From a bacterium ADurb.Bin157 (GTDB lineage: Bacteria; Muiribacteriota; Ozemobacteria; Ozemobacterales; Ozemobacteraceae), in NCBI GenBank assembly GCA_002070375.1, contig MWDD01000013.1:369-64368 (forward strand): DNA of 64,000 bases, written 5' to 3'. Shown piece by piece: positions 5,305-44,609 of the stretch. A model generated the notes under the pieces. That model worked only from the letters and a program-made list of their open reading frames with translations. It did no database searches and was not told the DNA's origin. The position numbers and the translations under genes are program-made. The stretch's first letter is position 1. Every line of letters begins with the position of its first letter.

Positions 5305-6186
5305 ATGAGACACTTTAAACACCTTGCTTTTTTGTTGATTATTTTATGCACAAGCCAACTTTTGGCTGTAAATTTCTCAAAAACGCTGGGCGATGCCGGC
5401 ATTGACGACGGCGGCTCATCGGCACCCGTTATACAAACAACAAAATCTGCTGCCGATCCAAGCGCAAACAAAGGTCTTGCCACCCTTTCAGGCAACGGAT
5501 TCGTAGGTGTATATTCTTCTCTGAATGTCAGAGATGCCGTTTGGGGCAACATAATCGGCAGTTTAACTAACAACGAACCGGTATCAATAATAGGGACCGA
5601 AGGCGACTGGTACAAAATCAGTTATCAAGGCGGCACAGGCTATGTACATGCCCGCTACATTTTCAACGCAAAAGACAAGCGCTACAGAGGGGATGAAGTT
5701 ACTTCCGCTAATCGTGGCGGTTCAGCCGAAGAAGTTATTCTCAATGTTCCCGGCACCGGAAGTTCACAAGCCAGAGTAGTAACTGCAGCGAATAGCTTGG
5801 TCAGCAAGTATTCCTCTCAAGGATCATTCCCTTATGCACCGGCAACTCAGGGCGGCTCACTCGGCTGCGCTCAAGTTGTGAGCACTGCTCTTAAAAACGC
5901 CGGGGTGCCCATAGGAGTTGATTTGTCCTGTATTTCCGTAAAAGGCAAACTCCAAAACATCGGCTATAAAACTGTTTCTGCTCCTCCGTTCCAAGCCGGA
6001 GACGTTATTTTTTGGTCGACATACGACAGAACCGGCGATGGCAGAAAAGACGCTGACACCCACATCGGTATTGTTATGACTTCAGGCAACAGTGCTCAAG
6101 CCATGAGTAACTCTTCGTCACAAAAACGCCCCAGAATACATTCAGCAACCTACGCACCGGTCACCACTGTCCTCAGAAAAGCATAA
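5305..6186 (+). CDS. Secreted cell-wall hydrolase: SH3b domain plus a papain-like (NlpC/P60 or CHAP) catalytic domain
   Basis: Signal peptide, an SH3b-like stretch (VYSSLNVRDAVWGNIIG...GDWYKISYQGGTGYVHARYI), a catalytic Cys context (GGSLGCAQVV) and a His context (DTHIGIVM). The SD AAGGAGA lies upstream. Confidence 0.6.
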   Translation: MRHFKHLAFLLIILCTSQLLAVNFSKTLGDAGIDDGGSSAPVIQTTKSAADPSANKGLATLSGNGFVGVYSSLNVRDAVWGNIIGSLTNNEPVSIIGTEGDWYKISYQGGTGYVHARYIFNAKDKRYRGDEVTSANRGGSAEEVILNVPGTGSSQARVVTAANSLVSKYSSQGSFPYAPATQGGSLGCAQVVSTALKNAGVPIGVDLSCISVKGKLQNIGYKTVSAPPFQAGDVIFWSTYDRTGDGRKDADTHIGIVMTSGNSAQAMSNSSSQKRPRIHSATYAPVTTVLRKA

Positions 6187-6196
6187 GGGATTTTAA

Positions 6197-7201
6197 ATGA
6201 ATAAGTCTTTAATTCTCGCACTGTTTTTTTCGGTCACCCTGGGATCAATCAGTTTCGGACAAATTTCCCTCGCCTACGGCGAGGGAAGCGAGAAACTGGC
6301 TTTTATAAACGAAAATCGTTTTCCAGGTCTTGAAGAGCCCGTTCCTTACGGGCCTTTGTCGTTTAGAATATCCGACAATCATTTCTGGGTCGCTGACAGT
6401 GTAGCAGGAAAAATTATTAAGGTTGACTTTAAAGGCAAAATCGTAAGAGAATTCGGTGCGCTTTCCACCGCAGCCAAAAAACCAAAGCCTGCTTTTAAAA
6501 ATGATCCTTGCCTTCAAATACTTATTGAAGACATTGCATTTGAAAAGGGTCCCTATGGGTCAGTTAAATCAGTTTGGGTAAGCGACAGTTTCGAAAACAA
6601 ACTCATAAAAATTGACACCACAGGAAAAATATTAAAAGAAATCAAGCACCCGGCATTCATACAACTCAGCAGAATAGAAATCGGACAAGGCGGACACATA
6701 TTTGTCGCCGACAAAGGCGCTCAAAAAATATTCATTTTTGACCACAAGTATAGTCTAATCGGAGCAGTTCACTGGGAATGGTCGGGCTTTGCAGTATCAG
6801 GTGCAGATGACAAGCTACATCGAGTTTTCTTTACCGAAGAATCCGGAAAACTTACATTAGTAACTACAGACACAAAAAATATAGTTTTACGAGAAATAGA
6901 GTTAGAACTCCCTATTCACTTAAACCCTGAGCTCTGGTGGGTCGACGAATTCAACGAAGATTTTGTGCTGACTTATACCCCAAAAACCGGTTTTGCAGGC
7001 AAATTTGTCGTTGTAAAAATCGGCTTCAACGGAAAAGTGAAACAACAATCAGAAATGGATGCTCCTATAGCTATGAATCGCTATATTGAACATTCAGACT
7101 TTGAAAAACTATGGATAGGCAAGGCCAACTTCAACGAAGCCCCCGAAGGAAAATTTGAAATCGTTCCTTTCAAATTTTCCGCAACGAACAACAGGAGGTA
7201 A
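6197..7201 (+). CDS. Secreted beta-propeller-like protein, paralog of the C-terminal half of the 12633-14135 protein
   Basis: Signal peptide. Repeated beta-strand motifs (FWVADSVAGKII, HIFVADKGAQKIFIFD). Clear aa and nt similarity to 13200-14135. Confidence 0.5.
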   Translation: MNKSLILALFFSVTLGSISFGQISLAYGEGSEKLAFINENRFPGLEEPVPYGPLSFRISDNHFWVADSVAGKIIKVDFKGKIVREFGALSTAAKKPKPAFKNDPCLQILIEDIAFEKGPYGSVKSVWVSDSFENKLIKIDTTGKILKEIKHPAFIQLSRIEIGQGGHIFVADKGAQKIFIFDHKYSLIGAVHWEWSGFAVSGADDKLHRVFFTEESGKLTLVTTDTKNIVLREIELELPIHLNPELWWVDEFNEDFVLTYTPKTGFAGKFVVVKIGFNGKVKQQSEMDAPIAMNRYIEHSDFEKLWIGKANFNEAPEGKFEIVPFKFSATNNRR

Positions 7202-7203
7202 TC

Positions 7204-7551
7204 ATGAAAAAGCTATCGATTTTCTTATCACTGTTTTTAATTTTATCATCAGTAGTGATTTACGCAGCAAAAGTCCCTACCCGCGGGAGGGTCTCGCCAA
7301 AAATAGGTGTAAACGTAAGAACAGGCCCCGGAACAAGCTATTCCAAAATCACTGCAATACCTTGTGGTCATGACCTTGAAATCATTGAGGTATCGGGCAA
7401 CTGGTATAAAATCGTTTACGGTTCGGTGACCGGTTATTCAATTGCTTCCGCGATAACAGTCACAGAGAGCAGAGAAGAAGATTCAGAAGACGACGATTCC
7501 GTAAGAAAGTTTTTGCCGACTTTGCTTTCTGTTGACCCGTCTACTCGATAA
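7204..7551 (+). CDS. Small secreted SH3b-domain protein
   Basis: 115 aa with a signal peptide and an SH3b-like motif (GVNVRTGPGTSYSKITAIPCGHDLEIIEVSGNWYKIVYG). Acidic C-terminal tail. The SD AGGAGG lies upstream. Confidence 0.55.
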   Translation: MKKLSIFLSLFLILSSVVIYAAKVPTRGRVSPKIGVNVRTGPGTSYSKITAIPCGHDLEIIEVSGNWYKIVYGSVTGYSIASAITVTESREEDSEDDDSVRKFLPTLLSVDPSTR

Positions 7552-7566
7552 TGCTAGAATAAACGT

Positions 7567-9711
7567 ATGTCTAAGCTGTCCACACAAATTAACTTGTCAC
7601 ACTCCCGAAAAGGCAGTGTAACAGTTATAGTCATAGGTATTTTTGTTGCACTGCTTGCAATGTTGGGAGGTTTTTTAAAATCTGCAACTCAACGGCAATA
7701 CACAACAAAAAAGCTTAACAAGGTTTTACTAGCCAGAGAATTTGCGACTTCTCTGGCTACTTTGTCTTGTCACAAATTAAAAGAAAAAGACTTAAAAACC
7801 CCTGACAGCAAACTTATACAGGCCCTTAAAAAACCTATAGAAGAGATGGCTGCAAAAGAGACGCAAGACATTTCGGCTTCTGATCTCAAGTCACTATTTG
7901 GTACTCTCATAGACGACCTAATAAAAGCAAACAATGATTTACAAAAACTTAATTACAAAATTAGTTGGTCAATAGACAAAAATGATTTTAGGCCGATATT
8001 AGCAGCATATCCACGTGAAAAAAAAGGTGTCATAAGACTTTTCGTATCTGTAAATTATCTTGCTCCGGGCTCAACCCAAAAAATAGAGGAAGATTATCTT
8101 TACTCAATAAAAGCTAAAGTCACATCTAATTTGGTTCCTGTGCTATCTAAATTCACCCTTTACATTGAAGATGCTCTTGGCACAGACGCAAATAGCGAAG
8201 AACGCTTTAACACGCTAAAAGTCGACTCTCGCGGACAGCTCAAAAACTCTTCGGAATATAAACCATGGATACTAAAAAATGGGCCGAACAAAGCCGAAAC
8301 AAACTATAAAAGCTATGCAGAAAAACCCATAGGAATAGTATACTTAGGCTCAAAAGATACTTCAGGCACCCCAAAACAAATAAACTTAGGACTTTCACGT
8401 TCCTGGAAAGAACCCGGAGAATGTTCCGAAGGCTTCCATTTATTGGCAGAAGGTCGAGGCGACGGGCTTTACACCGTTGAGAAACTTGACGAAATATATC
8501 AAATGAACTGGGAAATCGGGTTGGCCGATGACGAAGACGGAGATGCCAAGTTTTGGTTTGAGCTTATATACAGAGGCTTTTATAACATGTCTAAAGTCAG
8601 CTCTATATTGAAACTTTATGGCGCCGGCACCGGAGACAATGTTTCGCCTACTCTCGTCTTGGGAAACGTAAAATCCAGAACTTTATGCGCAAGGGCTTAC
8701 AAGGGTAACTTTGAGGGATCTCCGGAATATGGTCCTCTTCATTTTTTAACCGAACAAGAAATGTTTGACGACTCATCGGGGGCCTCAGAAGACACGCCAA
8801 GCACATATGAACACTACTGTTTTCAGCCTTTTTCCGGAAGTTATAAAAACAAATATGGCAGCCCCCTAACTTTTGAAATCTATCAAGAAAAATACTCAAG
8901 CACTCTCTGGGAAGTCCCATACAACCGTGGCCTGTTGTATATGGCCACAAACTTTCAAGACAGACACCCCGAAAACTCGGGCGCAATAGGACAAACAGAC
9001 CAACTGTACAAATTTGCGACCGGTTCTTCCCTAGACAAATCAGCGATGACAGCTGTTCCTGAGCCATTTAACAAAATATACAATATTGATTCATTAACTG
9101 ACATGAATGATTTTCTTGACCCTAAAAAAGTTTTTGCGGAAGAACAAAGATACTCTCACATCATAGACCTGACAAAATCAAAAACAACTCTGGAAAAAGA
9201 ACTAAAAAGACTGCATTTACTTGATGAACAAGAAACAAATCTGAATTTAAACGGTTGGATCTATATTAAGTCATCTGCTCCATTAACATTGCCCGCAAAA
9301 AGCCTGAATATAACGAGCAATGGAGGTCTTGTGCTTGAGAAAGGCAATATTTCAATCAGAGGACCTATAATTTCAAAAGGCGGAGATTTTATTCTACAAT
9401 TGATGGCCCTAGACGGAAATATAGAAATAGACACATCAGGAAACCTTAGCGTAGGCTTGACGGCAGCTTCAAAATCATCCGGTGACAATGGACAAGTTAA
9501 ACTGATAGGCGGTGCCACCGGCAACCAAATTACAGTCAAGGGAAATGTGGCAATGAAACAGATTAAGTCTGTTAAGGACCACATGGCAAGAGGGCTAAAG
9601 CTTGAGTATTTCTCTCCCCTGGCCGCGTTACCCAATAATATAAGCCCAACCAACAATGAAGAGCCTCTTTTAATGTATTCGTTGGGAAATAATGCGGAGC
9701 TTATTGAATAA
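7567..9711 (+). CDS. Giant PilX_N-like minor pilin / pilus tip-associated protein (714 aa)
   Basis: The N-terminus (HSRKG-SVTVIVIGIFVALLAMLGG) resembles the PilX N-terminal family: KG followed by a hydrophobic helix, with no Glu at +5. The large C-terminal region has beta-helix-like repeats (GGLVLEKGNISIRGPIISKGGDFIL). Two prepilin genes follow immediately. Confidence 0.5.
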   Translation: MSKLSTQINLSHSRKGSVTVIVIGIFVALLAMLGGFLKSATQRQYTTKKLNKVLLAREFATSLATLSCHKLKEKDLKTPDSKLIQALKKPIEEMAAKETQDISASDLKSLFGTLIDDLIKANNDLQKLNYKISWSIDKNDFRPILAAYPREKKGVIRLFVSVNYLAPGSTQKIEEDYLYSIKAKVTSNLVPVLSKFTLYIEDALGTDANSEERFNTLKVDSRGQLKNSSEYKPWILKNGPNKAETNYKSYAEKPIGIVYLGSKDTSGTPKQINLGLSRSWKEPGECSEGFHLLAEGRGDGLYTVEKLDEIYQMNWEIGLADDEDGDAKFWFELIYRGFYNMSKVSSILKLYGAGTGDNVSPTLVLGNVKSRTLCARAYKGNFEGSPEYGPLHFLTEQEMFDDSSGASEDTPSTYEHYCFQPFSGSYKNKYGSPLTFEIYQEKYSSTLWEVPYNRGLLYMATNFQDRHPENSGAIGQTDQLYKFATGSSLDKSAMTAVPEPFNKIYNIDSLTDMNDFLDPKKVFAEEQRYSHIIDLTKSKTTLEKELKRLHLLDEQETNLNLNGWIYIKSSAPLTLPAKSLNITSNGGLVLEKGNISIRGPIISKGGDFILQLMALDGNIEIDTSGNLSVGLTAASKSSGDNGQVKLIGGATGNQITVKGNVAMKQIKSVKDHMARGLKLEYFSPLAALPNNISPTNNEEPLLMYSLGNNAELIE

Positions 9712-10160
9712 TGCAGCAAATTTCAAACCCTTCCCGGGGATTCTCACTAACAGAAATCATGGTTGCCTGTTTAGCCCTTGGGATAATGCTTATCCCTGTT
9801 TTCATGATGTTTAGTCAAGGCTCAGCAGGAACAACGAAAAATCGAAATGATATACTTGCTCAGCAGCACGCAAGCAATCTTTTAGCGTATGCCACGTCTA
9901 TGAATTATGATGACACTTTTTTAAAAACCGGCTCGCAAGAAGTTAACGAGAAGAAGGTAAACAGCTCAGACGGAACAGAAATTGACTTAAGTATTTCAGA
10001 AGATATTTTCAAAAGATCAATGGAAATAAAAGAATATACTTTTCCCGGTTTTACTTACGCCTATAAACTTATAACTGTGTCGGTTAAATGGTCGCAAACA
10101 GGAGATAAAAAGACTGAAAACAATAGGGAAATTAAAATATCGGGACTCTTAAATAAGTGA
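9711..10160 (+). CDS. Prepilin-type (type IV pilin/pseudopilin-like) protein
   Basis: MQQISNPSRG|FSLTEIMVACL: a leader ending in Gly, then Phe, with Glu at +5. This is the N-methylation/cleavage motif. The start shares TAATG with the upstream stop. Confidence 0.7.
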   Translation: MQQISNPSRGFSLTEIMVACLALGIMLIPVFMMFSQGSAGTTKNRNDILAQQHASNLLAYATSMNYDDTFLKTGSQEVNEKKVNSSDGTEIDLSISEDIFKRSMEIKEYTFPGFTYAYKLITVSVKWSQTGDKKTENNREIKISGLLNK

Positions 10161-10168
10161 CAAAAAAA

Positions 10169-10696
10169 ATGAAAAAAGGTCTTACTTTAATAGAAATTTG
10201 CATAGGTGTTGTCATTGTTTCATTGCTGATGGTAACAATAATGAAACTTCTTGGAACAGGCATGAGCGGTTCTCAAAAAGGCTTGTCTCATCTCGCAAAC
10301 ATGGAAGCGGCTAGCATACTTATGTCACAAATCGAATATGATCTTATGCGAGCCTATGAACTCACAGATCCTCCGGTAGGTGAAAAATCTATATCTGCAC
10401 GTTGGAAAATGCTTACAGACGAAACTATTCCCGACACAACCGCTACGGTCACATATCAAAATCTCGACGAAGCCGTTAAACGCACACTCATTGAAGATGG
10501 TTCAACATTAGAACACACATATTGCAGAGGTCTTAAAACTGTTATAAGCTTTGAAAAAGTAAGATTCACTGATCCAAAAACCGGTGGTGAAAAACAGGGT
10601 CTATGGATAAATCTTTCGGTTGCATCGCCTAAGAAAATTTCGGGTGAAACTGAAAAGTTTGAACTAAAACGACTTATTATGTGTAAAAATTTCTGA
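10169..10696 (+). CDS. Prepilin-type (pseudopilin-like) protein
   Basis: MKKG|LTLIEICIGVVIV is a classical short leader with Glu at +5. The ORF track starts at the GTG at 10157. The ATG at 10169 gives the canonical leader. Confidence 0.7.
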   Translation: MKKGLTLIEICIGVVIVSLLMVTIMKLLGTGMSGSQKGLSHLANMEAASILMSQIEYDLMRAYELTDPPVGEKSISARWKMLTDETIPDTTATVTYQNLDEAVKRTLIEDGSTLEHTYCRGLKTVISFEKVRFTDPKTGGEKQGLWINLSVASPKKISGETEKFELKRLIMCKNF

Positions 10697-10711: not shown

Positions 10712-12640
10712 ATGTTTTTGTTTAAAAATCTTTCGCTGAAATTAAAAACCCTAAGAGTACTAATCCCCAAGAGAGACCTAATAATTCTTTTTATTATGTG
10801 GTTCTTACTTGGTTATTTTTTTATCTTTTATCCTATTTTAACAAAAAATATTGATTATGAAATTATAGATAAAAAAATCAAGGTTAAGTCTCAATTCTTA
10901 AAAGACAACTTCAAAACAGATATACTCTTAGTGTCTATTGACAGCGAAACACTTTCAGAAACAGAGCATAAATGGCCATGGCCACAAGAGCATTGGGCTA
11001 AGATCATTAATGACATTAAAGAGAAAGGTAAGCCAAAAGCAATAATATTAGACATCTATTTTCAGGAAAGCAAGACAGAAAAGCCCCCCGAAAGCTTTAT
11101 TAAAGCTGTCAAAGCCCAAAGCAACACAGGCCTTGTCGCAATTTATGAAGAAAATGAAACCACCTTTGGAAAACAGATACTTATATCGCCACCGATAAAA
11201 GAAATTGATGAAGCTGCCGCATTTACGGGAATTTCTCAACAACCTATTGATGATGACGGCAAAATTCGAACAATGATATTGCATGATAAAAGAATCAATT
11301 ATAAGCATATAGCTATAGAGCTTTTAAATAATTGTAAAATTGATATTCCTAATTTATCTGTTTTTTCTGATATTCAAACTCCGGTAGCTTTGCTCGACTT
11401 TCCTGTTTCTTACAGAGGCTTAAATCAAATTAGCATAAATGATTTAAAAAACGACGATCGCAATTACGAGTTTTTAAAAGACAGGATTGTCATAATCGGT
11501 GCCACCGCAAGCATCTTACATGATTATCATCAGACTTCTATAGGTTTGATAAGCGGCCCCGAAATAATATGTAATACTGTTGAAACACTGGGCAGTTCGT
11601 TTCTTCAACTTCTGGACGATAGTATTTCAAACAGAATAATACATTACTTAGCCGGAGTTCTGATTGTAATGTTATTCTATTCAGATCTATTTAAACAAAG
11701 CTCCAAACAAGTATTAATTATATGGCTGATGCTGCCGGTTTTTTTATTTTTTTATTCATACTTTCCCAAAGCGCATCCCCCGATTGAATTAACATGGCTC
11801 GGGTATACAGCTACAGCCGCATTATTTGTGCTAATGATTCGAATTATTGAATTGGCCGACATAAGAGAACAATTGACAGAAGCAAGTATTTGCAGCGATT
11901 TCCAAAAAGGTCTTTTTCCTGAAAAAGGCTTAACAGACGAAAGCGGCATTTCGTGCTACGGCACCTGCATACCATATCAAAACGCAGGAGGAGACTATTA
12001 CGACTTCTTTAAGCTCAAAAACGGCAATATCTTTTATATTTTATGCGATGTAAGCGGCCATGGGATTTCCGCAAGTATGATTACGACTGTTGTGAAAAGC
12101 TTAGTAGTCATAGAAACTACGAATGATAATTTTAATATAGACAGTCTTTTCAATAAAATAAACTATGCCGTTTTAAATTTAACAAAACGAAAAAAAATGG
12201 TAACGATTGTTGGGGGAATCATCAACACAAAAAATTATGAAGTTTCAATTTCTTCTGCCGGTCATATTCCGGCAATTTTAAAACACGGCAATGGTTTTGA
12301 AGAAATAGCTCTACCCGCATATCCTCTCGGAGTTTACTCCACCGAAAGATTAAAAAAGGCTCAAACAGTTATAAAATTAGAAAATTTTAATAAACTTTTT
12401 TTCTATTCAGACGGTATAATAGAGGCAAGAGATTGGAACAACCAAGAACTGGGCTTTGATTCATTCTATAATGAAATAAACAATCTTCCCGAGATCGCAA
12501 ACAGTGAAGAATGTATCAAAATATTACTGAATAAGTTAAAGGAACATACAAAAGGCCGCGATTTTGTTGACGATGTATCATTATTGGTAGTAAGCTGTAG
12601 ACGTAAAGACGCTAAAAAGGAGACAAAAGAGAGTGATTAA
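10712..12640 (+). CDS. CHASE2 sensor domain / PP2C (SpoIIE-type) Ser/Thr phosphatase membrane protein
   Basis: TM1, then an extracytoplasmic domain with the WPWP motif and the RIVIIGATASILHDYHQTSIGLISGPEIICNTVETL stretch of CHASE2, then three TMs, then PP2C motifs (GGDYYDFF, LCDVSGHGISASM, YSDGIIEAR). Confidence 0.7.
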   Translation: MFLFKNLSLKLKTLRVLIPKRDLIILFIMWFLLGYFFIFYPILTKNIDYEIIDKKIKVKSQFLKDNFKTDILLVSIDSETLSETEHKWPWPQEHWAKIINDIKEKGKPKAIILDIYFQESKTEKPPESFIKAVKAQSNTGLVAIYEENETTFGKQILISPPIKEIDEAAAFTGISQQPIDDDGKIRTMILHDKRINYKHIAIELLNNCKIDIPNLSVFSDIQTPVALLDFPVSYRGLNQISINDLKNDDRNYEFLKDRIVIIGATASILHDYHQTSIGLISGPEIICNTVETLGSSFLQLLDDSISNRIIHYLAGVLIVMLFYSDLFKQSSKQVLIIWLMLPVFLFFYSYFPKAHPPIELTWLGYTATAALFVLMIRIIELADIREQLTEASICSDFQKGLFPEKGLTDESGISCYGTCIPYQNAGGDYYDFFKLKNGNIFYILCDVSGHGISASMITTVVKSLVVIETTNDNFNIDSLFNKINYAVLNLTKRKKMVTIVGGIINTKNYEVSISSAGHIPAILKHGNGFEEIALPAYPLGVYSTERLKKAQTVIKLENFNKLFFYSDGIIEARDWNNQELGFDSFYNEINNLPEIANSEECIKILLNKLKEHTKGRDFVDDVSLLVVSCRRKDAKKETKESD

Positions 12641-14135
12641 ACAAAAACTGCTGTGGGTTATAATTGTTATCGGGTTCGGTTTACCATTTTTAATCGGTTG
12701 CGGAAATATCGAACCAATAGCCGAATTATCTGATGTACAGGGTACCGTCTCAGTAAAATCTAAGACTGCTCAAAACTTTTCGACCGGGATTGCAGGTAAC
12801 AAAATTTCTGCCGGCGACGTTGTAAAAACCGAAAGAGACTCGGAAGCCACAATTAAATTTTTAACCGATGAAACAGAGATTACTTTAAAAAGTAACACTT
12901 ACCTCGAAATTGATAAGGTTGCGGAATTTGAAATCAAACAAAAAAGCGGAATCGCCACATATAAAATCAGCCCTCAACAAAAGAATATAAAAATCACCAC
13001 CCCACAGGGTATGGCAACTGTTTTAGGAACAGTATTAACAATTGATGCCAAAGAAAATGAAACAACAGTTTCTGTTGAAAAGGGTAATGTTGATTTTACA
13101 AAAAAAGACGGTTCTAAAATCAATATTACCGAAGGAAGAATGTATTCTACAGGCTTTAAAGAAAACAAAGCCCGCAAAATACTCAAAACTCCGGTTTTAA
13201 AGCTTGGAACCGATGAAGTAGCGCTCTTCTACGGAGAAGGCAAAAACAAAGTAAGTTATATAAACGAAAACAAATACCCGGGGATTGAAGAACCGATTCC
13301 TTTCGGCCCTCTGTCTTTCAGAATAATCGACAATACTTTTTGGGTCGCCGACAGCGTAGCCGGAAAACTAATTCAACTGACTCGAGAAAATAAGCAGCTC
13401 AGAGAAATATCTGTAATACCATCCAATCAACCCAAACCCACGCCTGCATTTGAAAATGATCCTTGTCTGCAGGTTCTTATTGAAGACTTTGCGCCGGTAA
13501 GAGACGAAAACGGCACCGCCTATTCTTTCTGGGTTGCCGAAAGTATGGAAAACAGACTAATTAATGTAGACTTCACCGGAAAAATTCTTCACACCATAAC
13601 AAACCCCGACTTTAAGCAACTTTACAAGGTTGAAATTGGCAAAGGCGGACATCTTTTTGTAGCCGACAAAGGAGCTCAAAGAATCTTTATCTATGATAAA
13701 GAACTAAAATTTGTAGAAGCTGTAAGTTGGGAATGGTCCGGATTTGCTGTTTCAGGTGACGATGATGTTCTTTACAGAATATTTTTTACCCAAGAGACCG
13801 GTTTGCTCACACTCGTAGCTCAAAACAGAGAAAAGCAAATTTTGAGAGAAACCGAGCTCCTTTTGCCGATTCATTTGAATCCTGAACTTTGTTGGGTTGA
13901 CGAAAGCAAACAAGAATGCTTGATTACCTACACGCCAAAAACCGGATTTGCAGGCAAATTTATGGTGGCACTGGTGGGCTTTGACGGCACAGTAAGAAAA
14001 ACCACCGAAATGACTGCTCCCATAGCAATGAACAGATATATAGAAAGATACAATAACAAAGTATGGATTGCCGATGCTGATTTTAACACTGCTCCGGAAA
14101 CACTCTTTAAAATTAAACCTTTTAAACTGTATTAA
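12633..14135 (+). CDS. Lipoprotein with an N-terminal FecR-like domain and a C-terminal beta-propeller-like domain (paralog of 6197-7201)
   Basis: Lipobox LIGCGN. FecR-like beta-sandwich stretch (ISAGDVVKTERDSEATIKF...TLKSNTYLEI). The C-terminal 300 aa are collinear with 6197-7201. Confidence 0.55.
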   Translation: MIKQKLLWVIIVIGFGLPFLIGCGNIEPIAELSDVQGTVSVKSKTAQNFSTGIAGNKISAGDVVKTERDSEATIKFLTDETEITLKSNTYLEIDKVAEFEIKQKSGIATYKISPQQKNIKITTPQGMATVLGTVLTIDAKENETTVSVEKGNVDFTKKDGSKINITEGRMYSTGFKENKARKILKTPVLKLGTDEVALFYGEGKNKVSYINENKYPGIEEPIPFGPLSFRIIDNTFWVADSVAGKLIQLTRENKQLREISVIPSNQPKPTPAFENDPCLQVLIEDFAPVRDENGTAYSFWVAESMENRLINVDFTGKILHTITNPDFKQLYKVEIGKGGHLFVADKGAQRIFIYDKELKFVEAVSWEWSGFAVSGDDDVLYRIFFTQETGLLTLVAQNREKQILRETELLLPIHLNPELCWVDESKQECLITYTPKTGFAGKFMVALVGFDGTVRKTTEMTAPIAMNRYIERYNNKVWIADADFNTAPETLFKIKPFKLY

Positions 14136-14157: not shown

Positions 14158-14198
14158 ATGGTTGCCCCAAAATATGGGCAACCATTTTTTTATGCTAA
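14158..14198 (+). terminator. Rho-independent terminator-like hairpin
   Basis: ATGGTTGCCC-caaaatat-GGGCAACCAT followed by TTTTTTT, immediately after the stop at 14135. It lies inside the 5' end of the ORF-track call 14162-16291. Confidence 0.55.
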
Positions 14199-16291
14199 CA
14201 CTAATACCCAAAAAAGGCGTTGCTCTTGCAGTAGCCATATCAATAAGCAGCATTTTGATGTTGCTCGCTGTTGCCATGTTTTCGTTTATCAATAACCAGC
14301 ATTTGGGAATAAATGCTATTGTTAATGGTGAAATTGCACATTTTTTAGCTGAAGCAGGCATAAATAGATGTATTCCGGAAATTAGAAATTCAATAAGCAG
14401 CGCATTGTCGACAAACCCCAACAACAAAAAACTCAGAGAAATACTATTAACACCGGGCAAAGTAAAAGATACCGATATAACAAAATTACTTGGAGGCTCC
14501 TGGAACAAAGAGCTGGAAAAGTTTGCGAAAGAAACTGATGAAACCGCAGCAATTGAAGTCAAGATTTGGCTCAGAGAATTAGAAAATTCCGAAACCGACA
14601 AAAAGGTTTGGGCTGACCCTATTGCACGAAGAGGATTCGTTGTGATCGAATCTGAAGGTCGTTACAAAACAGGAAAAAGAAAAATAGCAATAAAACGCCT
14701 AATCAACATAACAAACATACTTCCCGGATTTATGTCTAAATTTACTATGTTCTTAACTGAGGCAGGCAATAACGGAACAAAAAAATACAATATAATAAAG
14801 AATGATTACAAGGGAATGGTTACAGACGGCCCAAAGCCCCTGATTTTATATAATCATCTTACGCCTGAAACACCTTCGGCCAATTCTGATAATTGGAACT
14901 TTGATGAAGCCCTTAAAAGCGAACAAAATGAAGACATATGGAAAAACAGAGGCTGGATATGGATTGGCGGAGACAAGATAAGGCTTAATCTTTGCTCAGG
15001 CGCCGGAGATTTGGGTGAAATTTTTCATTTTTACGATGTCAGTAAAGTGAATGATTTTTCTCCCATAAGGTTTTCTACTCCTGAAAATCTTTTGCCTTCA
15101 TCATTTAAAAATATAAATAAAATACCCTGGGACAAAACAGCATCAATAATCAGAACCGTATCATATAAATTCGGACACAGTTTTGTATTAGACAGCTTTC
15201 ACGACAGAAGCAACCGTAAAAGTTCCGATGCCATGTATGAAGGCGGAATTCTATCAACAGAAGAATTGCATGAGCATGGCTCAAAATCATCGGTATTGCA
15301 TCTTTATGGCGATGCCCGCAAAGGCTTCCAATCGAGAACCAAGGTTTTTGGTAATGTATATTCGGCATTTATTCGTTTTTCAAATCTTGAAATAGAGCCT
15401 AAAGAACCGGATGTTTCAAACATCTTTAAGTCAGTTTTCCCCCCACCTTTATATCTTTTACGGTCAATAATTGAAAAAGATTACAGCAATTCAATCGATA
15501 TAAAAGAAATAAATCAAAGAATTTGTGGCGGTCCAATGTTAAAAACAGGCATGTTATTTAACAATTATTCAGAATATTCTTCCTTTATGAGCAAGATTAT
15601 TGAACAACCTTATGTTTATTCCTACAACAACATGCAAGAAATTTATACCAATAAACCTAATCGTCATTTTCCGCCATCTAAAACAATTTTATCTCTTGAT
15701 ACAGATTCTAACATCTCGCTTCGACGGGATAACCATACTTTTTTTGAGGGGAAACCCTCAGCTTCAACAGCACTACAAACTATTGAAAGTCGTGTTCACC
15801 TTGAAGTAGGAAATATAAAAGAGTTTTGGGACAAATTTTTAAATGAGGACCAAGAATTAGACCTAAATGCTGTTGTAAGAATCAAGAACAGTGAAAATCT
15901 CGATTTTGCAGTCCCCCCCTCCAACCTTCCTCAGCCTCTTAAAGTCAGAGGCGGCGGCGCAATTTTACTGGATCAGGGAAGCATAGATCTAAGAGGGGTT
16001 CTGTGTAATTCAGCAAATGAAGCTCTTACAATAGCCTCGACCTACGGCACAAACATATATTTTTCCTCAAACCTTCCTAATCATGTCAATATCATAGCGC
16101 CAAACGCAGAATTGTCTTACAGCTCAAAATTTATATTATTTGGCAGTCTTTGTGCAAAAAACATATACGTTGATAACCGTTTTCAGGGTGGGAAAATTTA
16201 TTTTAGACCTGAAACAGCCCCCGACTCAAGCTTTTCAGATTCTTTTTATAAAGTTTACGTGAGCACCAAGGATTCATATTGGAATGAATAG
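14192..16291 (+). CDS. Giant PilX_N-like minor pilin / pilus tip-associated protein, paralog 2 (about 700 aa)
   Basis: The likely start is MLTLIPKKG-VALAVAISISSILMLLAVAM (PilX_N-like), downstream of the hairpin. The ORF track starts at 14162. The C-terminus has beta-helix-like repeats (GGGAILLDQGSIDLRGVL...). Two prepilins follow. Confidence 0.5.
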   Translation: MLTLIPKKGVALAVAISISSILMLLAVAMFSFINNQHLGINAIVNGEIAHFLAEAGINRCIPEIRNSISSALSTNPNNKKLREILLTPGKVKDTDITKLLGGSWNKELEKFAKETDETAAIEVKIWLRELENSETDKKVWADPIARRGFVVIESEGRYKTGKRKIAIKRLINITNILPGFMSKFTMFLTEAGNNGTKKYNIIKNDYKGMVTDGPKPLILYNHLTPETPSANSDNWNFDEALKSEQNEDIWKNRGWIWIGGDKIRLNLCSGAGDLGEIFHFYDVSKVNDFSPIRFSTPENLLPSSFKNINKIPWDKTASIIRTVSYKFGHSFVLDSFHDRSNRKSSDAMYEGGILSTEELHEHGSKSSVLHLYGDARKGFQSRTKVFGNVYSAFIRFSNLEIEPKEPDVSNIFKSVFPPPLYLLRSIIEKDYSNSIDIKEINQRICGGPMLKTGMLFNNYSEYSSFMSKIIEQPYVYSYNNMQEIYTNKPNRHFPPSKTILSLDTDSNISLRRDNHTFFEGKPSASTALQTIESRVHLEVGNIKEFWDKFLNEDQELDLNAVVRIKNSENLDFAVPPSNLPQPLKVRGGGAILLDQGSIDLRGVLCNSANEALTIASTYGTNIYFSSNLPNHVNIIAPNAELSYSSKFILFGSLCAKNIYVDNRFQGGKIYFRPETAPDSSFSDSFYKVYVSTKDSYWNE

Positions 16292-16715
16292 CAAAAGCGG
16301 CATATCATTAATTGAAATAGTAGTTGCTATCGGTTTATTAGCAGCTGTTTTGGCTCCGGTATTTTTAATTTTTTCATCGGGCAACCGAAATATGGAAATG
16401 ACAGAGGCAGAGTTCAGAGCACATAATTGCGCTATAGAAATAATGGAACAAATCATTTCTCTTCCTTACAAACATATAAAATCCGGCACCTATACAAGCT
16501 CTGACGTTAAAAATGGCTTAAATTTCGCGAATTCTGCAATACTCTATAAAATCAGTGAAAACTATGAATCAGAACTCAAGGTAGAAGATATGAAAGAAAA
16601 GGGCAAAAGTATTTTTAAAAAAGTCAGCGTGAAAGTATCATATCAAGCGACCAAAAACTCTGCATCAAAGCGCAGCTTTACAATTAAAACTATGGTTGCA
16701 AATGAAACAAACTAA
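16284..16715 (+). CDS. Prepilin-type (pseudopilin-like) protein
   Basis: MNSKSG|ISLIEIVVAIGLL: leader ending in Gly, Glu at +5. Confidence 0.7.
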   Translation: MNSKSGISLIEIVVAIGLLAAVLAPVFLIFSSGNRNMEMTEAEFRAHNCAIEIMEQIISLPYKHIKSGTYTSSDVKNGLNFANSAILYKISENYESELKVEDMKEKGKSIFKKVSVKVSYQATKNSASKRSFTIKTMVANETN

Positions 16716-17238
16716 AAAAGCCTTCACATTGGTTGAAATTATAGTTGTGTCAGCAATATCCGCAGTTTTTATAACTACGGTTGTAATGCTGTTGATTAAT
16801 TTCAGAAAAGGTTATTCTAAAAGTGAATACAGCGGAATTCTTATGCAAGAAACAGCTCTTTTAATTGCTCACCTCAGAACTGATCTTAACAATGCGGTTG
16901 ACAAACAGATTTACACTTCAGAGAATCAGCTTATGTTTAACGCCTACAATAACAGCAAAGGAATAACAGAACCAATTGTTTACACCCTCGAAAAAGCCCC
17001 CCAAGGCCGTATATTAACAAGAAAAGAGGGTAACGGAAAAGCGCGCACAATTGTAAAAAGCAATGTTGCCTCATTGACATGGCAAACAAGTTTAGATGTA
17101 TATGAAACGAAGCCTGTTCCCGTAAAGAGATTAAGCATTGATTTAGATATTCTATTAGAAGCACCGAACATGCCTGAGAAAAGCTTTCGCCTTAGAAGTG
17201 CCATATTTCCGAATAGAGTGAATAAGCAAATCAATTAA
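16696..17238 (+). CDS. Prepilin-type (pseudopilin-like) protein
   Basis: MQMKQTKKA|FTLVEIIVVSAI: Ala rather than Gly at -1, Glu at +5. Confidence 0.65.
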   Translation: MQMKQTKKAFTLVEIIVVSAISAVFITTVVMLLINFRKGYSKSEYSGILMQETALLIAHLRTDLNNAVDKQIYTSENQLMFNAYNNSKGITEPIVYTLEKAPQGRILTRKEGNGKARTIVKSNVASLTWQTSLDVYETKPVPVKRLSIDLDILLEAPNMPEKSFRLRSAIFPNRVNKQIN

Positions 17239-17432
17239 TAATGAGGCGGCTTTTCGCAATGAGGTCTGTCCTCTTCAAGAGGGGAAAGAGGTATTTTCCC
17301 TTCTAAATGTGACAAATGCTTTTTCAAGCGATCTATTATTTGCTGTTGTTCAATAACTACATTATTTAAGTCTTCAATATATCTTTCGAGGTAAATAATT
17401 CTTTTTTCAATTTCAAATAATCTGTTTTCCAT
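17235..17432 (-). CDS. slyX: SlyX family protein
   Basis: MENRLFEIEKRIIYLERYIEDLN... is a coiled coil ending PPHY, as in SlyX. The ORF track extends to 17453 (MRQKRKK-). The start is uncertain. Confidence 0.55.
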   Translation of the reverse strand: MENRLFEIEKRIIYLERYIEDLNNVVIEQQQIIDRLKKHLSHLEGKIPLSPLEEDRPHCEKPPHY

Positions 17433-20400
17433 TTTTTTCCTTTTCTGCCTCATTAGCTACAAGGTTATTATTAAAAACCAAAATAACCAGCGTCATATCG
17501 TCTTCAGGGTCGTTATTCTCAGTATGAAGCTTGTATTTGTTATATATATTATTATAGAACAAAGCCGGATTAATATCATAAGAATCAGCTATAATCTTTT
17601 GGAATTGTGAGTATCCAAGGTCTTCACCCGCAGTATTTCTGGACTCAATTATTCCATCAGAATAAAAAATTACTGCATCGCCTTGTTCTAACTCAAATGA
17701 TTTTTCGGTATAGACAGTTTTTTTAAATGCTCCCAGTACCGGCGAAGCAAACTTAAGCTCTTCAACTTCATTAGTCTTCTTTCTGTAAATATATGGTGAA
17801 CAACCTCCTGCGTTTGCATAGAGTGCCTTCCCCTCTTCACTGTTAAATACCACATATTGGAATGTCATAATTTTTCTTTGCTGCTTATTTTTTGACTGCA
17901 AAATCAGTTGATGCAAGAGATTTAATATTTTTTCCGGTGAATTTTGATATTCCTCACTACACAGAATACCTGCTTTCGCCATAGCCATAATTAAGGCAGC
18001 ACCTATTCCGTGCCCGGCCACATCACCAATTAAAGCCGCAAAATATTTATCATTGATTTGAAAATAATCAAAATAGTCTCCTCCTATAGCGCTCATGGCA
18101 ATACTTTTTCCATATACGGCAAAAGAGTTATGGAAAAAACTTTCCTTGGGAAAAAGACTCTCTTGAACAACTTTCGCGGTTTCAACTTCAGCTAAGCCAA
18201 CCATTATGTTGTTAAATATATTTCCCACTTCTCCGAATTCATCTTTATCCAGATTAGTGATTCTATGTGAAAAATCTCTGTTTTCTATTGCTATTGCCCC
18301 TTTTTGCAACTCGCTTAAGGGTTCTAAAAAACTTTTTGCAAGTATTTGAGCCAAACTGATGGCTAAAACAGTATTTAATAGTACATACAGGGTCAGCTCT
18401 GTTTTCTGCTTTCCGATAATTTTTTCTGCATTTTTAATTGGATAAAGGCCTATCAGCCTGTAGGCATTTAAATACTCGCCGTTAAAAGCCACAATAACGT
18501 AATCTTGGCCATTATAATTAATAAATTCGATTTCTTCTGACTGTGATTTCCCTGTTTTTTTAACATAGTCAATAAGGACATCGTTTTCATCTTTAATATT
18601 TCCAAAAAATTCACGTGTCGCCAAATTATAGACAACAAGTTTAATATTATGTTCATTTCTGTTGGCATCAAATAAAGATGTTTTAAGAAAATCAGCTTGC
18701 AGGCGATTACCTAACCATAAACACACCAGTGCATAGTCTAATTTATCGGGCGTATGAACCGGCACAAACTTAAAATAAGTCATGTTTATATTTTTTTCAA
18801 AACCCCAAGGTTTAATATCATCAACATTAGTCATCAATCCATTTGTTATCTCAATAAAATTAAGCTGCAATAAAGATTCTGCCACGAGTTCTAACCTTGC
18901 GACCAAATGTCTCGGCAACTCTTTGCGATTCAAATCACCAATAATTTTTTTGGCAACTAAGTTGAGTAATTTTAATTCATCATAAGCATACTTCGATAAA
19001 GTTCTGTTAAATGTGCTTTTTTCTTTGTCGAGGACAGGGTTATCAATCGAGCCTTTGTAGTATATAAAACCGTCGCTTGAACCGACATAGCTGGTTTCGC
19101 TGCCAATTACATAAGATTTATCCACATACATATTATCAATCAAATATTTCATGGAATCGCTATTAAATTGTTTATCAAACCCATTTTTTTTAACGTGCTC
19201 TCCCCATTTTTTATAGAATTTATCTAAATCAAAACAAATATTCTTTAAAAACGATCTAAATTTTCTGTCATAGCTTTTCAAAGCATCATTTGTCATGTTC
19301 TGAGCCGATGAAATCAGCACATGTCTCTTATGAATATTATGCTCATTTGAAATCATGATCATGGCAACCAATGGAATTCCGGTTGAAAACCAAAAAAGGA
19401 AAGCGAGCTTTAACCTAATTGAAAACTTTCCGGGTATTTTGTAAACAATGCTTCTCCAAGTGTAAAATAAAAACGGTAACATTACTAAACCGTAAATTAC
19501 AGCACCAAACAGAGAATATAGGTTAATAATTTTATCAGAATATTTTCTTTTTACAGATGTAATGAATCTGAACTCGGGAGATATGTAGCTATAACCATAG
19601 TATCTGTCAGGATCTAAAACAAAATCGCTCTTCAATTTTTCGAAATTTTCAATTAGTGTATTATCAAAAATATCATCAAGACTTTTATTGTTAACCCAAA
19701 GATTCTTTTTATTATCTCGGCAATCCACTATTCCGACACTTATATCCGGATATGTGTTTTTAGAGTTTTTAACTATATATTTCAAAGATGTGAAATTTTT
19801 AAAAATATCATAATTAAAAAATATCAGAACCATAGCATTTTCTAATGCGTAAGCGGCGAAAGGAGGTTTTTGCATCGCACTGTCAGCCCAAGCCAGGGAA
19901 AAAGATACCGCGTCTCTTGTTCCAACTAATGCATCTTCGATTATCTGCGGCCCAAGTATTTTTTTACTGCGATCTAAATCTACTCTGCCCCTTAGTTTTG
20001 AATAATGTATTCCATTTGATGCAAAATATGGGGCATAATACAAAAGAATATCATGAACACTTTTCCACTCAGCCTCGTTGTATTCGGTCTCAAATGTTTT
20101 ATCCTGAATTTTTCCTGATGAATTCCAAACAATAAAGTCTATTTCATTATCAAAAGCTTTTTTTTGATTATGCATCCAAGTAATCAAAGGGCCTACCGTT
20201 ATATTTTTACTGCCTAGTTTTGCAAAGTTTTCATAAAAGAATCTACCAAAGAAATCCTCTTCATTTTTTGCCTGTTTAGCATTATTGATTAATTGTTGAT
20301 GACGCATTTTATAATCAAAAAGACTATTTTGTTCGTCCATAGTAAAGTATCTGTTTATAGCAAAAAATGACAAAACAGCCGGAATACCCACAAGGAATAT

Positions 20401-20469
20401 AGCCATGAGTATCCAAGCAACAAGGGACCTAATTGAATACGTATTATAGTTTTTATTTTTACTATTCAT
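17413..20469 (-). CDS. Membrane sensor phosphatase with two periplasmic domains, HAMP and a PP2C (SpoIIE) domain. Paralog 1.
   Basis: 1018 aa. Hydrophobic segments at about aa 17-38, 315-335, 350-370 and 690-710. HAMP-like linker (LSELQKGAIAIENRDFSHRI...EFGEVGNIFNNIM). PP2C motifs (GGDYFDYF, IGDVAGHGIGAALIMAM, YSDGIIESRN). Confidence 0.75.
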   Translation of the reverse strand: MNSKNKNYNTYSIRSLVAWILMAIFLVGIPAVLSFFAINRYFTMDEQNSLFDYKMRHQQLINNAKQAKNEEDFFGRFFYENFAKLGSKNITVGPLITWMHNQKKAFDNEIDFIVWNSSGKIQDKTFETEYNEAEWKSVHDILLYYAPYFASNGIHYSKLRGRVDLDRSKKILGPQIIEDALVGTRDAVSFSLAWADSAMQKPPFAAYALENAMVLIFFNYDIFKNFTSLKYIVKNSKNTYPDISVGIVDCRDNKKNLWVNNKSLDDIFDNTLIENFEKLKSDFVLDPDRYYGYSYISPEFRFITSVKRKYSDKIINLYSLFGAVIYGLVMLPFLFYTWRSIVYKIPGKFSIRLKLAFLFWFSTGIPLVAMIMISNEHNIHKRHVLISSAQNMTNDALKSYDRKFRSFLKNICFDLDKFYKKWGEHVKKNGFDKQFNSDSMKYLIDNMYVDKSYVIGSETSYVGSSDGFIYYKGSIDNPVLDKEKSTFNRTLSKYAYDELKLLNLVAKKIIGDLNRKELPRHLVARLELVAESLLQLNFIEITNGLMTNVDDIKPWGFEKNINMTYFKFVPVHTPDKLDYALVCLWLGNRLQADFLKTSLFDANRNEHNIKLVVYNLATREFFGNIKDENDVLIDYVKKTGKSQSEEIEFINYNGQDYVIVAFNGEYLNAYRLIGLYPIKNAEKIIGKQKTELTLYVLLNTVLAISLAQILAKSFLEPLSELQKGAIAIENRDFSHRITNLDKDEFGEVGNIFNNIMVGLAEVETAKVVQESLFPKESFFHNSFAVYGKSIAMSAIGGDYFDYFQINDKYFAALIGDVAGHGIGAALIMAMAKAGILCSEEYQNSPEKILNLLHQLILQSKNKQQRKIMTFQYVVFNSEEGKALYANAGGCSPYIYRKKTNEVEELKFASPVLGAFKKTVYTEKSFELEQGDAVIFYSDGIIESRNTAGEDLGYSQFQKIIADSYDINPALFYNNIYNKYKLHTENNDPEDDMTLVILVFNNNLVANEAEKEKNGKQII

Positions 20470-23371: not shown

Positions 23372-23376
23372 ATTTT

Positions 23377-29176: not shown

Positions 29177-29258
29177 AATCACTCTACTATTTAATATCTC
29201 ACTCAACACACCCATTCTAACACATGTAATGGCTGTTAGCCACAAAACACTTAATTAG

Positions 29259-43407: not shown

Positions 43408-43601
43408 CGGTTATACTCCGTACATAGTCTATATTGTTTAAGAGTATAACAAAAAAGTGTAAAAATGTGAACTGCGCCCTCTAAAAGTTTCGTAAAATGA
43501 GCAATCTAAGGTCTGAAAGTATATAGAATTAGTTTTGTGCGCTTGCCTTATAATTAGGTCTGATGTATAATCAGAGACAAATTACAATACCGGAGCAGAA
43601 A

Positions 43602-44606
43602 ATGCCACAATTAAGAAAAGACCCGGTTACTAAAAGATGGGTAATTTTGTTGCATGAACAAAAAAAATTACCTGCAGATTTTAAAATAGAGCACGCTCCC
43701 AAACAAACAAACAAATGCCCATTTTGTCCCGGCAACGAAAACATGACTCCGGTTGAGCTGATGTCATACAGAAGCGAAAACACGCTTCCCAATGAGCCCG
43801 GCTGGCAAGTTAGGGTAATACCGAATCGGTTTCCCGCTCTTCAAATTGAGGGCGACTTAGACCGCATGGGGTTAGGCGTATACGACATGATGAACGGTGT
43901 CGGCGCTCATGAAGTAATTATCGAAAGCCCGAATCACGAAGACGGATTCCATAATTACAGTTCCGAGCAGATATCAAGGGTATTACACACTTATGTAGAG
44001 CGCTACAGAGATCTTTCACGCGACCGTCGGTTCAGATATATTTTAGTATTTAAAAACAACGGGTCAGCTGCCGGCGCAAGTTTAGATCACCCTCACTCTC
44101 AACTGATAGCGACTCCCATTATTCCCAAAAGGGTAATGGAAGAACTTGAAGGTGCCAAAACTTATTATTACTACAAAGAAAGATGCGTATTTTGCGACAT
44201 TATTCGTCAAGAACTAAGCCAAGGCGAGCGCATAATTCATGAGAACGAAAGTTTTGTTGCATTTGAACCTTTTGCCTCAAGGTTCCCGTTCGAGACTTGG
44301 ATAGCCCCCAAAGACCATAAAGACTGTTTCGGAGACATTGACAAAAGCGAAATTGACGGTTTGGCCGACATTATGCAGGCCACCATAAAAAAGCTCATAA
44401 AAACCTTAGACAACCCGCCGTTTAATTTTATAATTCATACCTCACCGTGCGGCGAGCACTGCACAGACTATTTTCACTGGCACATCGAAATAATGCCGCG
44501 CGTCACAAAAATAGCCGGGTTTGAATGGGGTTCGGGTTTTTATCTTAATCATATGTCACCTGAGCGCGCCGCTCGTTTTCTTATTAATCCAAATTACAAG
44601 GGATAA
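43602..44606 (+). CDS. GalT-like HIT-superfamily nucleotidyltransferase/phosphorylase (galactose-1-phosphate uridylyltransferase family). Paralog 1.
   Basis: CPFCPGNE Zn-site motif and the HxHxQ active-site motif (DHPHSQLIATP). The ORF track starts at 43563. The ATG at 43602 (MPQLRKDP) has the SD GGAG and aligns with the paralog's start. Confidence 0.65.
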   Translation: MPQLRKDPVTKRWVILLHEQKKLPADFKIEHAPKQTNKCPFCPGNENMTPVELMSYRSENTLPNEPGWQVRVIPNRFPALQIEGDLDRMGLGVYDMMNGVGAHEVIIESPNHEDGFHNYSSEQISRVLHTYVERYRDLSRDRRFRYILVFKNNGSAAGASLDHPHSQLIATPIIPKRVMEELEGAKTYYYYKERCVFCDIIRQELSQGERIIHENESFVAFEPFASRFPFETWIAPKDHKDCFGDIDKSEIDGLADIMQATIKKLIKTLDNPPFNFIIHTSPCGEHCTDYFHWHIEIMPRVTKIAGFEWGSGFYLNHMSPERAARFLINPNYKG

Positions 44607-44609
44607 AAC

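Follow-up and report, generated by a model that had tools for sequence, protein, structure and literature searches.

Giant Glu5-less proteins encoded with small prepilins in Riflebacteria: a family of putative K-type minor pilins with a predicted solenoid-like C-terminal region

In type IV filaments, the minor pilins H, I, J and K form a priming complex that ends up at the filament tip, and the K subunit, which lacks the glutamate at position +5 (Glu5), caps this complex (PMC9934059). ComZ of Thermus thermophilus, a DNA-binding competence pilin of the K class, is associated with the tip and carries a large beta-solenoid, for which the tip has been argued to be the only possible place (PMC6561018). 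A triangular solenoid is present in every cyanobacterial PilX homologue, the very large HpsA-like PilX-EPS among them, and has been proposed to replace the plug or adhesin PilY1 (bioRxiv 10.64898/2026.02.12.705559); a role as tip receptor or plug has been suggested for the solenoids of ComZ and cyanobacterial PilX alike (PMC6561018; bioRxiv 10.64898/2026.02.12.705559). In Streptococcus sanguinis, PilA is a small, I-like protein without Glu5 and with a degenerate class III signal peptide (PMC8179133, PMC9934059). Here we analyze two giant proteins, A and B, encoded in a stretch of 64,000 nucleotides (the window; positions 369 to 64,368 of contig MWDD01000013.1, assembly GCA_002070375.1) of the bacterium ADurb.Bin157, a member of the Ozemobacteraceae. 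We find them to be probable K-type (PilX/GspK-class) minor pilins of a type IV filament, be it a type IV pilus or a pseudopilus like that of the type II secretion system (T2SS):

7567..9711, + strand: protein A, 714 amino acids (aa) from an ATG start, a giant putative minor pilin of the PilX/GspK class (K-type)
14174..16291, + strand: protein B, 705 aa from ATG 14174 or 699 aa from ATG 14192, a divergent paralogue of A

Both open reading frames, which an earlier note on this DNA had placed at 7567-9711 and 14192-16291 with about 710 aa each, are real. They are not chance frames, because they run for more than 700 codons in DNA with a guanine-plus-cytosine (GC) content of about 38% and have 65 (A) and 91 (B) homologues. 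A 714-aa protein in public assemblies is 99% identical to A, and a 705-aa database protein (P0209) is 100% identical to B. The frame of B is open from TTG 14162, with ATG 14174 and ATG 14192 (the choice of the earlier note) as plausible starts and 16291 as the shared end. The window as a whole belongs to a diderm bacterial chromosome of low GC content (33-44%) and carries lpxA, lpxC-fabZ, lpxD and bamA at 34.6-40.8 kb; an 830-aa exported protein without a Pfam match (40915-43407, - strand) adjoins this bamA/lpx cluster on its upstream side.

The strongest evidence for the pilin reading, not used by the earlier note, is the conserved coupling of the giant genes to genes for Glu5-bearing prepilins. 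All eleven genes between 5305 and 17238 lie on the + strand with gaps of 56 nucleotides or less and several stop/start overlaps, and A and B are each followed by two small genes of this kind, which we assign as I- or J-like from their size and weak profile matches (a slash marks the putative prepilin-peptidase site):

9711..10160, + strand: 149-aa prepilin-type protein, RG/FSLTEIMVA, about the size of an I subunit; 1-nucleotide overlap with the stop of A
10157..10696, + strand: 179-aa prepilin-type protein, KG/LTLIEICIG, about the size of a J subunit; 4-nucleotide overlap with the 149-aa gene
16284..16715, + strand: 143-aa prepilin-type protein, SG/ISLIEIVVA, about the size of an I subunit; 8-nucleotide overlap with B
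16696..17238, + strand: 180-aa prepilin-type protein, KA/FTLVEIIVV, about the size of a J subunit; 20-nucleotide overlap with the 143-aa gene

The 180-aa protein scores above the gathering thresholds of N_methyl (23.4 against 21.2 bits) and TIGR02532 (20.3 against 16.3) and has weak matches to ComGF and HpsC (the latter at E 0.005). The 143-aa protein, 31% identical to the 149-aa protein, reaches exactly the N_methyl gathering score (21.2 bits) and matches XpsI at E 3.6e-4. The 149-aa protein obtains 20.6 bits with N_methyl, weakly matches PilV, GspH and ComGE, and aligns in hhalign with probabilities of 78-93% to GspG/H/I/J versus 1% to GspK. The 179-aa protein matches PRK10557 at E 0.0024, and PpdB is also among the weak matches of the four small proteins. 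When the window was scanned with a regular expression for other prepilin N-termini, three of these four genes came up and nothing new. In every locus that we examined the small prepilin genes lie directly downstream of the big gene, often overlapping. Both cassettes of the window have the full trio of the big gene followed by two small ones, and so do six of eight related loci (L003, L006, L007, L008, L009 and L010), which span subfamilies sharing just about 20% identity; the remaining two, L001 and L002, are copies of one locus (that of the family member P0013) and have just one small gene downstream. In the trios of the relatives the small proteins measure about 131-162 aa and then about 184-208 aa, and both display the signature G/A, slash, x-[ST]-[LF]-x-E. 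Beyond the small pilins, L009 and L010 feature two or three conserved unannotated genes encoding 380-451 aa, which are absent from the window.

The N-termini of A and B agree with the earlier description of a PilX-type start that lacks Glu5. The leader of A is as follows:

7567..7614, + strand: A residues 1-16, a short basic leader ending in R-K-G, with a putative prepilin-peptidase site at G16/S17

Protein A begins MSKLSTQINLSHSRKG/SVTVIVIGIFVALLAMLGGFLKS, the leader ending in SHSRKG, and B begins (MGNHFF)MLTLIPKKG/VALAVAISISSILMLLAVAMF, with PKKG/VALAV at the boundary. Both thus display the components of a class III signal peptide, namely a short basic leader, Gly at -1 and about 20 hydrophobic residues (RKG/SVTVIVIGIFVALLAMLGG in A and KKG/VALAVAISISSILMLLAVA in B), and position +5 is occupied by Ile in A and by Val in B. 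Across the family, a Gly at the boundary between basic leader and hydrophobic segment was recovered by an automatic rule in 136 of 146 intact relatives and by eye in 6 more (about 97%), with Ala in its place in 2 of the 146; it is preceded directly by K or R in 133 relatives, is at least 90% conserved in family alignment A1, and none of 136 relatives has Glu at +5. In divergent subfamilies the Gly is directly followed by F, M, L or I, and an A-x-x-[LI]-A-E-A-G motif occurs about 35 residues past it, with IAHFLAEAG as the N-terminal counterpart in B. One divergent relative, P0178, matches positions 1-50 of the 51 in the Pfam PilX_N profile (PF14341; E 3.7e-4, 20.8 bits). When a profile of the family N-domain was compared with the pseudopilins using hhalign, E. 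coli GspK came out best (E 0.0026, probability 11.5%), with the R/K-G-hydrophobic-...-LAxE stretch of the family aligned to the GspK N-terminus, and GspG, H, I and J stayed at a probability of 1.2% or less; the small neighboring proteins behave in the opposite manner, with 52-93% for G/H/I/J and 1% or less for K. None of these measures of similarity is proof by itself, yet all of them point the same way.

Judged from their alignments, A and B are distant paralogues within one new, phylum-restricted family. Pairwise BLASTP aligns them at about 22% identity over the C-terminal ~170 residues (E 2e-4), with a short extra match around the motif LSKFT, and they are collinear in single family alignments (A1 and A3). 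A database search with A returned its 65 homologues. A family profile run against 1.84 billion cluster representatives recovered 646 proteins at E <= 1e-3, 425 of them at E <= 1e-10, so that the family comprises at least 646 clusters at 50% identity; among the best 150 profile matches almost all are 600-830 aa long and the remainder are shorter fragments. The earlier note was right about the unusual size of A and B, and the two belong to a previously unnamed family. A second database search, made with a profile built from divergent members and aimed at other phyla, yielded only the 91 B-type orthologues from Riflebacteria; full-length orthologues of B are 51% (P0140) and 41-43% (P0175, P0163 and P0145) identical to it. 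The named sources are nearly all Candidatus Riflebacteria, Rifleibacteriota or Ozemobacteraceae, and every relative is called "hypothetical protein" at its source. One metagenome-assembled genome encodes two or more additional divergent paralogues (locus tags HQM08_14470 and HQM08_25620), and there are accordingly several copies per genome. Scans of A, B and 31 relatives with Pfam and NCBIfam gave nothing above noise, and no fitting domain was present among the precomputed Pfam domains of the relatives. Matches to DUF7305 (E 0.1), for which we found no mention in the literature, and to Tad/PF13400 (E 0.06) were judged to be noise, and Slr1964, the sole return of a profile search over PDB sequences, was rejected at E 0.17. 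We found nothing relevant in the literature on pili of Riflebacteria or Ozemobacter.

An AlphaFold2 model of A, based on a 33-sequence alignment, has a predicted local distance difference test score (pLDDT) of 88.2 and a predicted template-modelling score of 0.86; B is described below through its alignment with A. The check by AlphaFold that the earlier note had proposed thus gave a predicted N-terminal helix followed by a sheet, a mixed domain and solenoid-like coils:

7612..7791, + strand: A residues 16-75, one continuous alpha1-like helix (DSSP), the first ~20 residues hydrophobic
7855..8127, + strand: A residues 97-187, strands 97-102, 129-137, 152-165 and 172-187 with short helices between them, a putative pilin head domain
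8134..9246, + strand: A residues 190-560, a conserved mixed alpha/beta region of ~370 residues, pLDDT mostly above 85
9250..9606, + strand: A residues 562-680, some five coils, each with three short strands, and a recurrent G-N-[IV]-x-[IV] motif
15857..16231, + strand: B residues ~555-680, a C-terminal repeat region (GGGAILLDQGSIDLRG...) homologous to the A solenoid (BLASTP and alignment A1)

The leader of A (residues 1-15) is disordered in the model, with a pLDDT below 50, and a separate AlphaFold2 model of residues 1-200 (pLDDT 85.7) reproduces the helix, there spanning 14-75, and the sheet. The middle region holds the most conserved motifs of the family, with invariant or near-invariant columns in P-VLSKFTLYVEDA, PWVL-N-G, GLVYLGG, GE-FHFF and S-LKLYG...SPTLVLG-V. 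In the C-terminal region DSSP assigns strand triplets at residues 564-680, with 3-5 residues per strand and a period of ~22-25 residues. The C-terminus of A contains the segments NGGLVLEKGNISIRG, DGNIEID, NGQVKLIGG and KGNVAMK, and the family alignment shows conservation of 90% or more at G587, G593, G617, G642 and G659. From the predicted secondary structure and the sequence repeats, we read residues 564-680 as a triangular beta-solenoid. The beta-helix-like module of the earlier note therefore stands as far as the repeats and predicted strands go; the regular solenoid takes up just ~120-150 residues and not the C-terminal 500. The model ends in a terminal strand (702-706) close to the conserved E698 and L702; mean-field direct coupling analysis (260 sequences, Neff 185) of a return of this strand to the pilin sheet gave gap artefacts as its top pairs. 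Foldseek searches with the full model of A against PDB and BFVD, and with the N-domain model against PDB, returned nothing at E <= 0.001. The best match of pilin type, which is not significant and only suggestive, is in line with the pilin reading: it is 7o5y, the Glu5-less tip minor pilin PilA of S. sanguinis (E 0.17, TM-score 0.45 for the target). Residues 190-560 may represent a fold without a solved representative, or one that Foldseek missed.

We assign A and B to the K class because they combine Gly at -1, the absence of Glu5 and co-encoding with Glu5-bearing partners of I and J size. As K-type minor pilins, they would be inserted into the inner membrane by their class III signal sequence, and a prepilin peptidase would probably cut behind the conserved Gly. 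Their alpha1 helix would then bundle with those of the two small Glu5-bearing, I/J-like pilins encoded downstream, and the resulting complex would prime filament assembly and end up at the tip. Given that they lack Glu5 and carry a bulky extension of ~500 residues, A and B could serve only as the terminal cap, and the extension, comprising the mixed domain and the ~5-coil beta-solenoid, would thus be exposed at the end of the filament, where it would act as a plug, a binding module or both. A single machine, encoded elsewhere, would have a choice of tips, supplied by the two cassettes of the window and by others in Riflebacteria genomes. The earlier note overstated the case in speaking of adhesion and sensing, which for A and B are no more than inferences, as is ligand binding.

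The genes upstream of the giant proteins are more variable and repeatedly encode exported wall-binding proteins or hydrolases, with SH3_3, LysM, SLT_3 lytic transglycosylase, weak CHAP/NlpC-P60 and Peptidase_C39-like domains. A gene for an NHL-repeat protein is also part of the A-type cassettes. In the window, this part of the cassettes consists of:

5305..7551, + strand: three exported accessory genes upstream of A, encoding a 293-aa SH3_3 protein that weakly matches CHAP/NlpC-P60, a 334-aa NHL-repeat protein and a small SH3 protein of 115 aa, identified with Pfam and NCBIfam
12633..14135, + strand: FecR-NHL protein of 500 aa upstream of B (Pfam FecR, E 2.9e-11)

The A-type upstream arrangement is repeated in L001 and L003, and L007 and L008 have variants with SH3, LysM and SLT domains. 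In BLASTP the NHL protein upstream of A (6197-7201) is 58% identical to the C-terminal 306 aa of the one upstream of B (12633-14135), and the latter copy has gained an N-terminal FecR domain. Divergence between the duplicated cassettes is uneven, with 58% identity for the NHL proteins, about 22% for A and B and 20-31% for the pairs of small pilins. An extracytoplasmic function-type sigma factor, a zf-HC2 anti-sigma factor and FecR genes flank the cassettes of relatives (L006 5302-5901, L007 13217-16679 and L010 196-819), in keeping with the FecR-NHL fusion encoded in the window.

Several genes around the cassettes belong to signaling families. A CHASE2-SpoIIE protein (10712-12640, + strand) is encoded between cassettes A and B, and directly downstream of cassette B lies a tandem array of genes for four paralogous membrane proteins (969-1018 aa; 17413-29245, - strand) that share 26-35% mutual identity. 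The three that were scanned combine HAMP and SpoIIE/PP2C phosphatase domains, and the fourth (23377-26286) was judged by its full-length alignment with them. STAS-domain genes occur near the cassettes in L001, L009 and L010. The presence of SpoIIE/PP2C and STAS genes hints at partner-switching regulation near the cassettes. Flagellin and STAS genes are found just upstream of the B-type cassette in L009 (8540-9328) and L010 (8562-9347). In L007 the direct neighbors of the cassette on its two flanks (7480-9513 and 18467-20053) are a tandem pair of GalT-like (GalP_UDP_transf) paralogues and a Peptidase_C92-like protein, whereas their counterparts in the window (43563-45611 and 55692-57308) are 34-46 kb from cassette A, so that the region has evidently been rearranged between genomes.

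A number of observations weigh against the assignment of A and B as K-type minor pilins. Neither protein matches N_methyl, TIGR02532, PilX_N or T2SSK (PF03934) at E <= 0.1, and a scan of 33 family members with N_methyl (PF07963) and TIGR02532 gave no match at E <= 1. The PilX_N match of P0178 is the sole one of its kind, concerns a relative only and lies under the gathering score of 25.5, and the hhalign probability for GspK is low in absolute terms. Neither the full model nor the N-domain has a significant Foldseek match in PDB, and ComZ and GspK are outside the top 50 matches. Most A-type members have Ser or Asn at +1, an uncommon residue there among prepilins; the genes run K-I-J and not in the usual order I-J-K; an H-type pilin was not found in the cassettes, in the window or up to 10 kb away in ten related loci; and the window, like the 10 kb around these relatives, is free of genes for a major pilin, an ATPase, a platform protein, a secretin or a prepilin peptidase. 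Several of these points would be accommodated if A and B were uncleaved, signal-anchored bitopic proteins of the inner membrane, acting as periplasmic assembly or regulatory partners of pseudopilins or of the wall-binding proteins of the operon rather than as filament subunits. The lack of any match to a pilin model, the atypical Ser/Asn at +1, the SH3, LysM and peptidoglycan-hydrolase genes in the operon and the presence of bitopic VirB8/DotI/TraM-like proteins among the top weak Foldseek matches to the full A model (E about 1) would all fit such an arrangement. We nevertheless hold it to be unlikely: a plain signal anchor offers no rationale for the near-universal Gly after K/R at the hydrophobic edge, the divergent members combine G/F, G/M or G/L with a PilX_N-like AEAG motif, the continuous helix of 60 residues resembles pilin alpha1, and the coupling to genes of Glu5-bearing pilins is strict.

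A T2SS-like pseudopilus, in which the giant K protein would be the tip of a piston that pushes co-encoded SH3-NlpC/P60, SLT or NHL cargo through a secretin, is a variant of the same mechanism as the one we favor; as a specific proposal it appears rather improbable. The GspK-I-J logic is equally valid for the T2SS (PMC9934059). Several subfamilies co-encode exported proteins that bind or hydrolyze peptidoglycan, as well as NHL proteins, and the small proteins weakly match XpsI, GspH and HpsC; against this, genes for GspC/D/E/F/L/M are missing near every cassette, and the accessory genes vary among subfamilies. To our knowledge, a tip module of ~500 residues has not been described for a GspK of the T2SS, which also speaks against the piston. 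The same accessory genes evoke a bolder scenario, which we raise as a long shot: the cassette, which unites a giant cap pilin without Glu5 and its two small pilins with an NHL protein and a protein that binds or hydrolyzes peptidoglycan, might constitute a contact-dependent weapon or feeding device. In it, and with as little confidence, the alternative pilus tips, bearing a structurally novel module of ~500 residues, might dock onto other cells and position the cell-wall hydrolase. Finally, A and B might have nothing to do with type IV filaments and represent a lineage-specific envelope protein whose likeness to K pilins and whose neighborhood are coincidental. Statistical support for pilin homology is indeed weak throughout, yet coincidence is very unlikely, the least credible of these readings, because adjacency to prepilin genes has been kept across subfamilies that share ~20% identity.

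Taken as K-type minor pilins, A and B would have ComZ and cyanobacterial PilX/HpsA as the closest known proteins by function and architecture, a likeness of architecture rather than demonstrated homology. Like ComZ, they are large pilin-like proteins encoded with small minor pilins, in which a pilin framework is predicted to be combined with a beta-solenoid; unlike ComZ, the Riflebacteria proteins are larger, contain an extra mixed domain of ~370 residues and are encoded by the first gene of the trio, and ComZ shows no similarity to A or B by sequence or in Foldseek. With cyanobacterial PilX/HpsA they would share the design of a K-class minor pilin that lacks Glu5 and bears a bulky solenoid, to which the cyanobacterial proteins sometimes add further domains; moreover, the several alternative priming sets per cyanobacterial genome are reminiscent of the multiple Riflebacteria cassettes. 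They differ in that they come from another phylum, lack an H-type (FimT/FimU) pilin in the cassette and are co-encoded with peptidoglycan-binding/hydrolase and NHL proteins, and neither A nor B has an NCBIfam or other sequence match to HpsA. The expectation of new family members in the earlier note consequently holds for the family, which is new and was unnamed; the design is already known, since large PilX-class pilins bearing a solenoid have been described in ComZ and cyanobacterial PilX/HpsA, and only the family, not the concept, is new.

With GspK and conventional PilX proteins, A and B share the lack of Glu5, Gly at -1, the operon with I/J-like pilins and the proposed capping and priming role, and it is to GspK that the N-terminal profile aligns best; they are, however, more than twice the size, do not possess the GspK-type alpha-domain or a T2SSK or PilX_N match, and have the K-I-J order. 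PilY1 is a non-pilin with a C-terminal beta-propeller. A functional analogy with PilY1/PilC as a tip plug or adhesin is possible, and an NHL-repeat protein is co-encoded with A and B; A and B differ from PilY1 in that their N-terminus is pilin-like, and neither Pfam nor the predicted architecture reveals a PilY1-type beta-propeller. We therefore reject a relationship to PilY1 or PilC, to which the earlier note had linked them. A relationship to TadG was likewise rejected, there being no TadE or Tad match above noise and the neighbors being classical G/FxLxE pilins. The modular minor pilins PilB/PilC and PilA of S. sanguinis (PMC8179133, PMC9934059) illustrate the same principle of a functional module grafted onto a pilin for display in the tip complex; there it is pilins with Glu5 that carry the modules (vWA, lectin), whereas in Riflebacteria a Glu5-less subunit would do so.

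To the specialist, the finding is useful rather than surprising. It would give annotators a naming rule for several hundred "hypothetical proteins", and the middle domain of A offers a confidently predicted structure without a solved structural neighbor. Should the weapon or feeding scenario hold, it would represent a function not described for type IV filaments. The large unannotated family, with several divergent paralogous cassettes per genome, would constitute a ready set of interchangeable tip modules for studies of filament specificity. If the K-type assignment is correct, the Riflebacteria, an uncultured diderm phylum, would join Thermus and the cyanobacteria in using an oversized Glu5-less tip pilin instead of the pair of PilX and PilY1, which would suggest that this solution is widespread or has arisen repeatedly.

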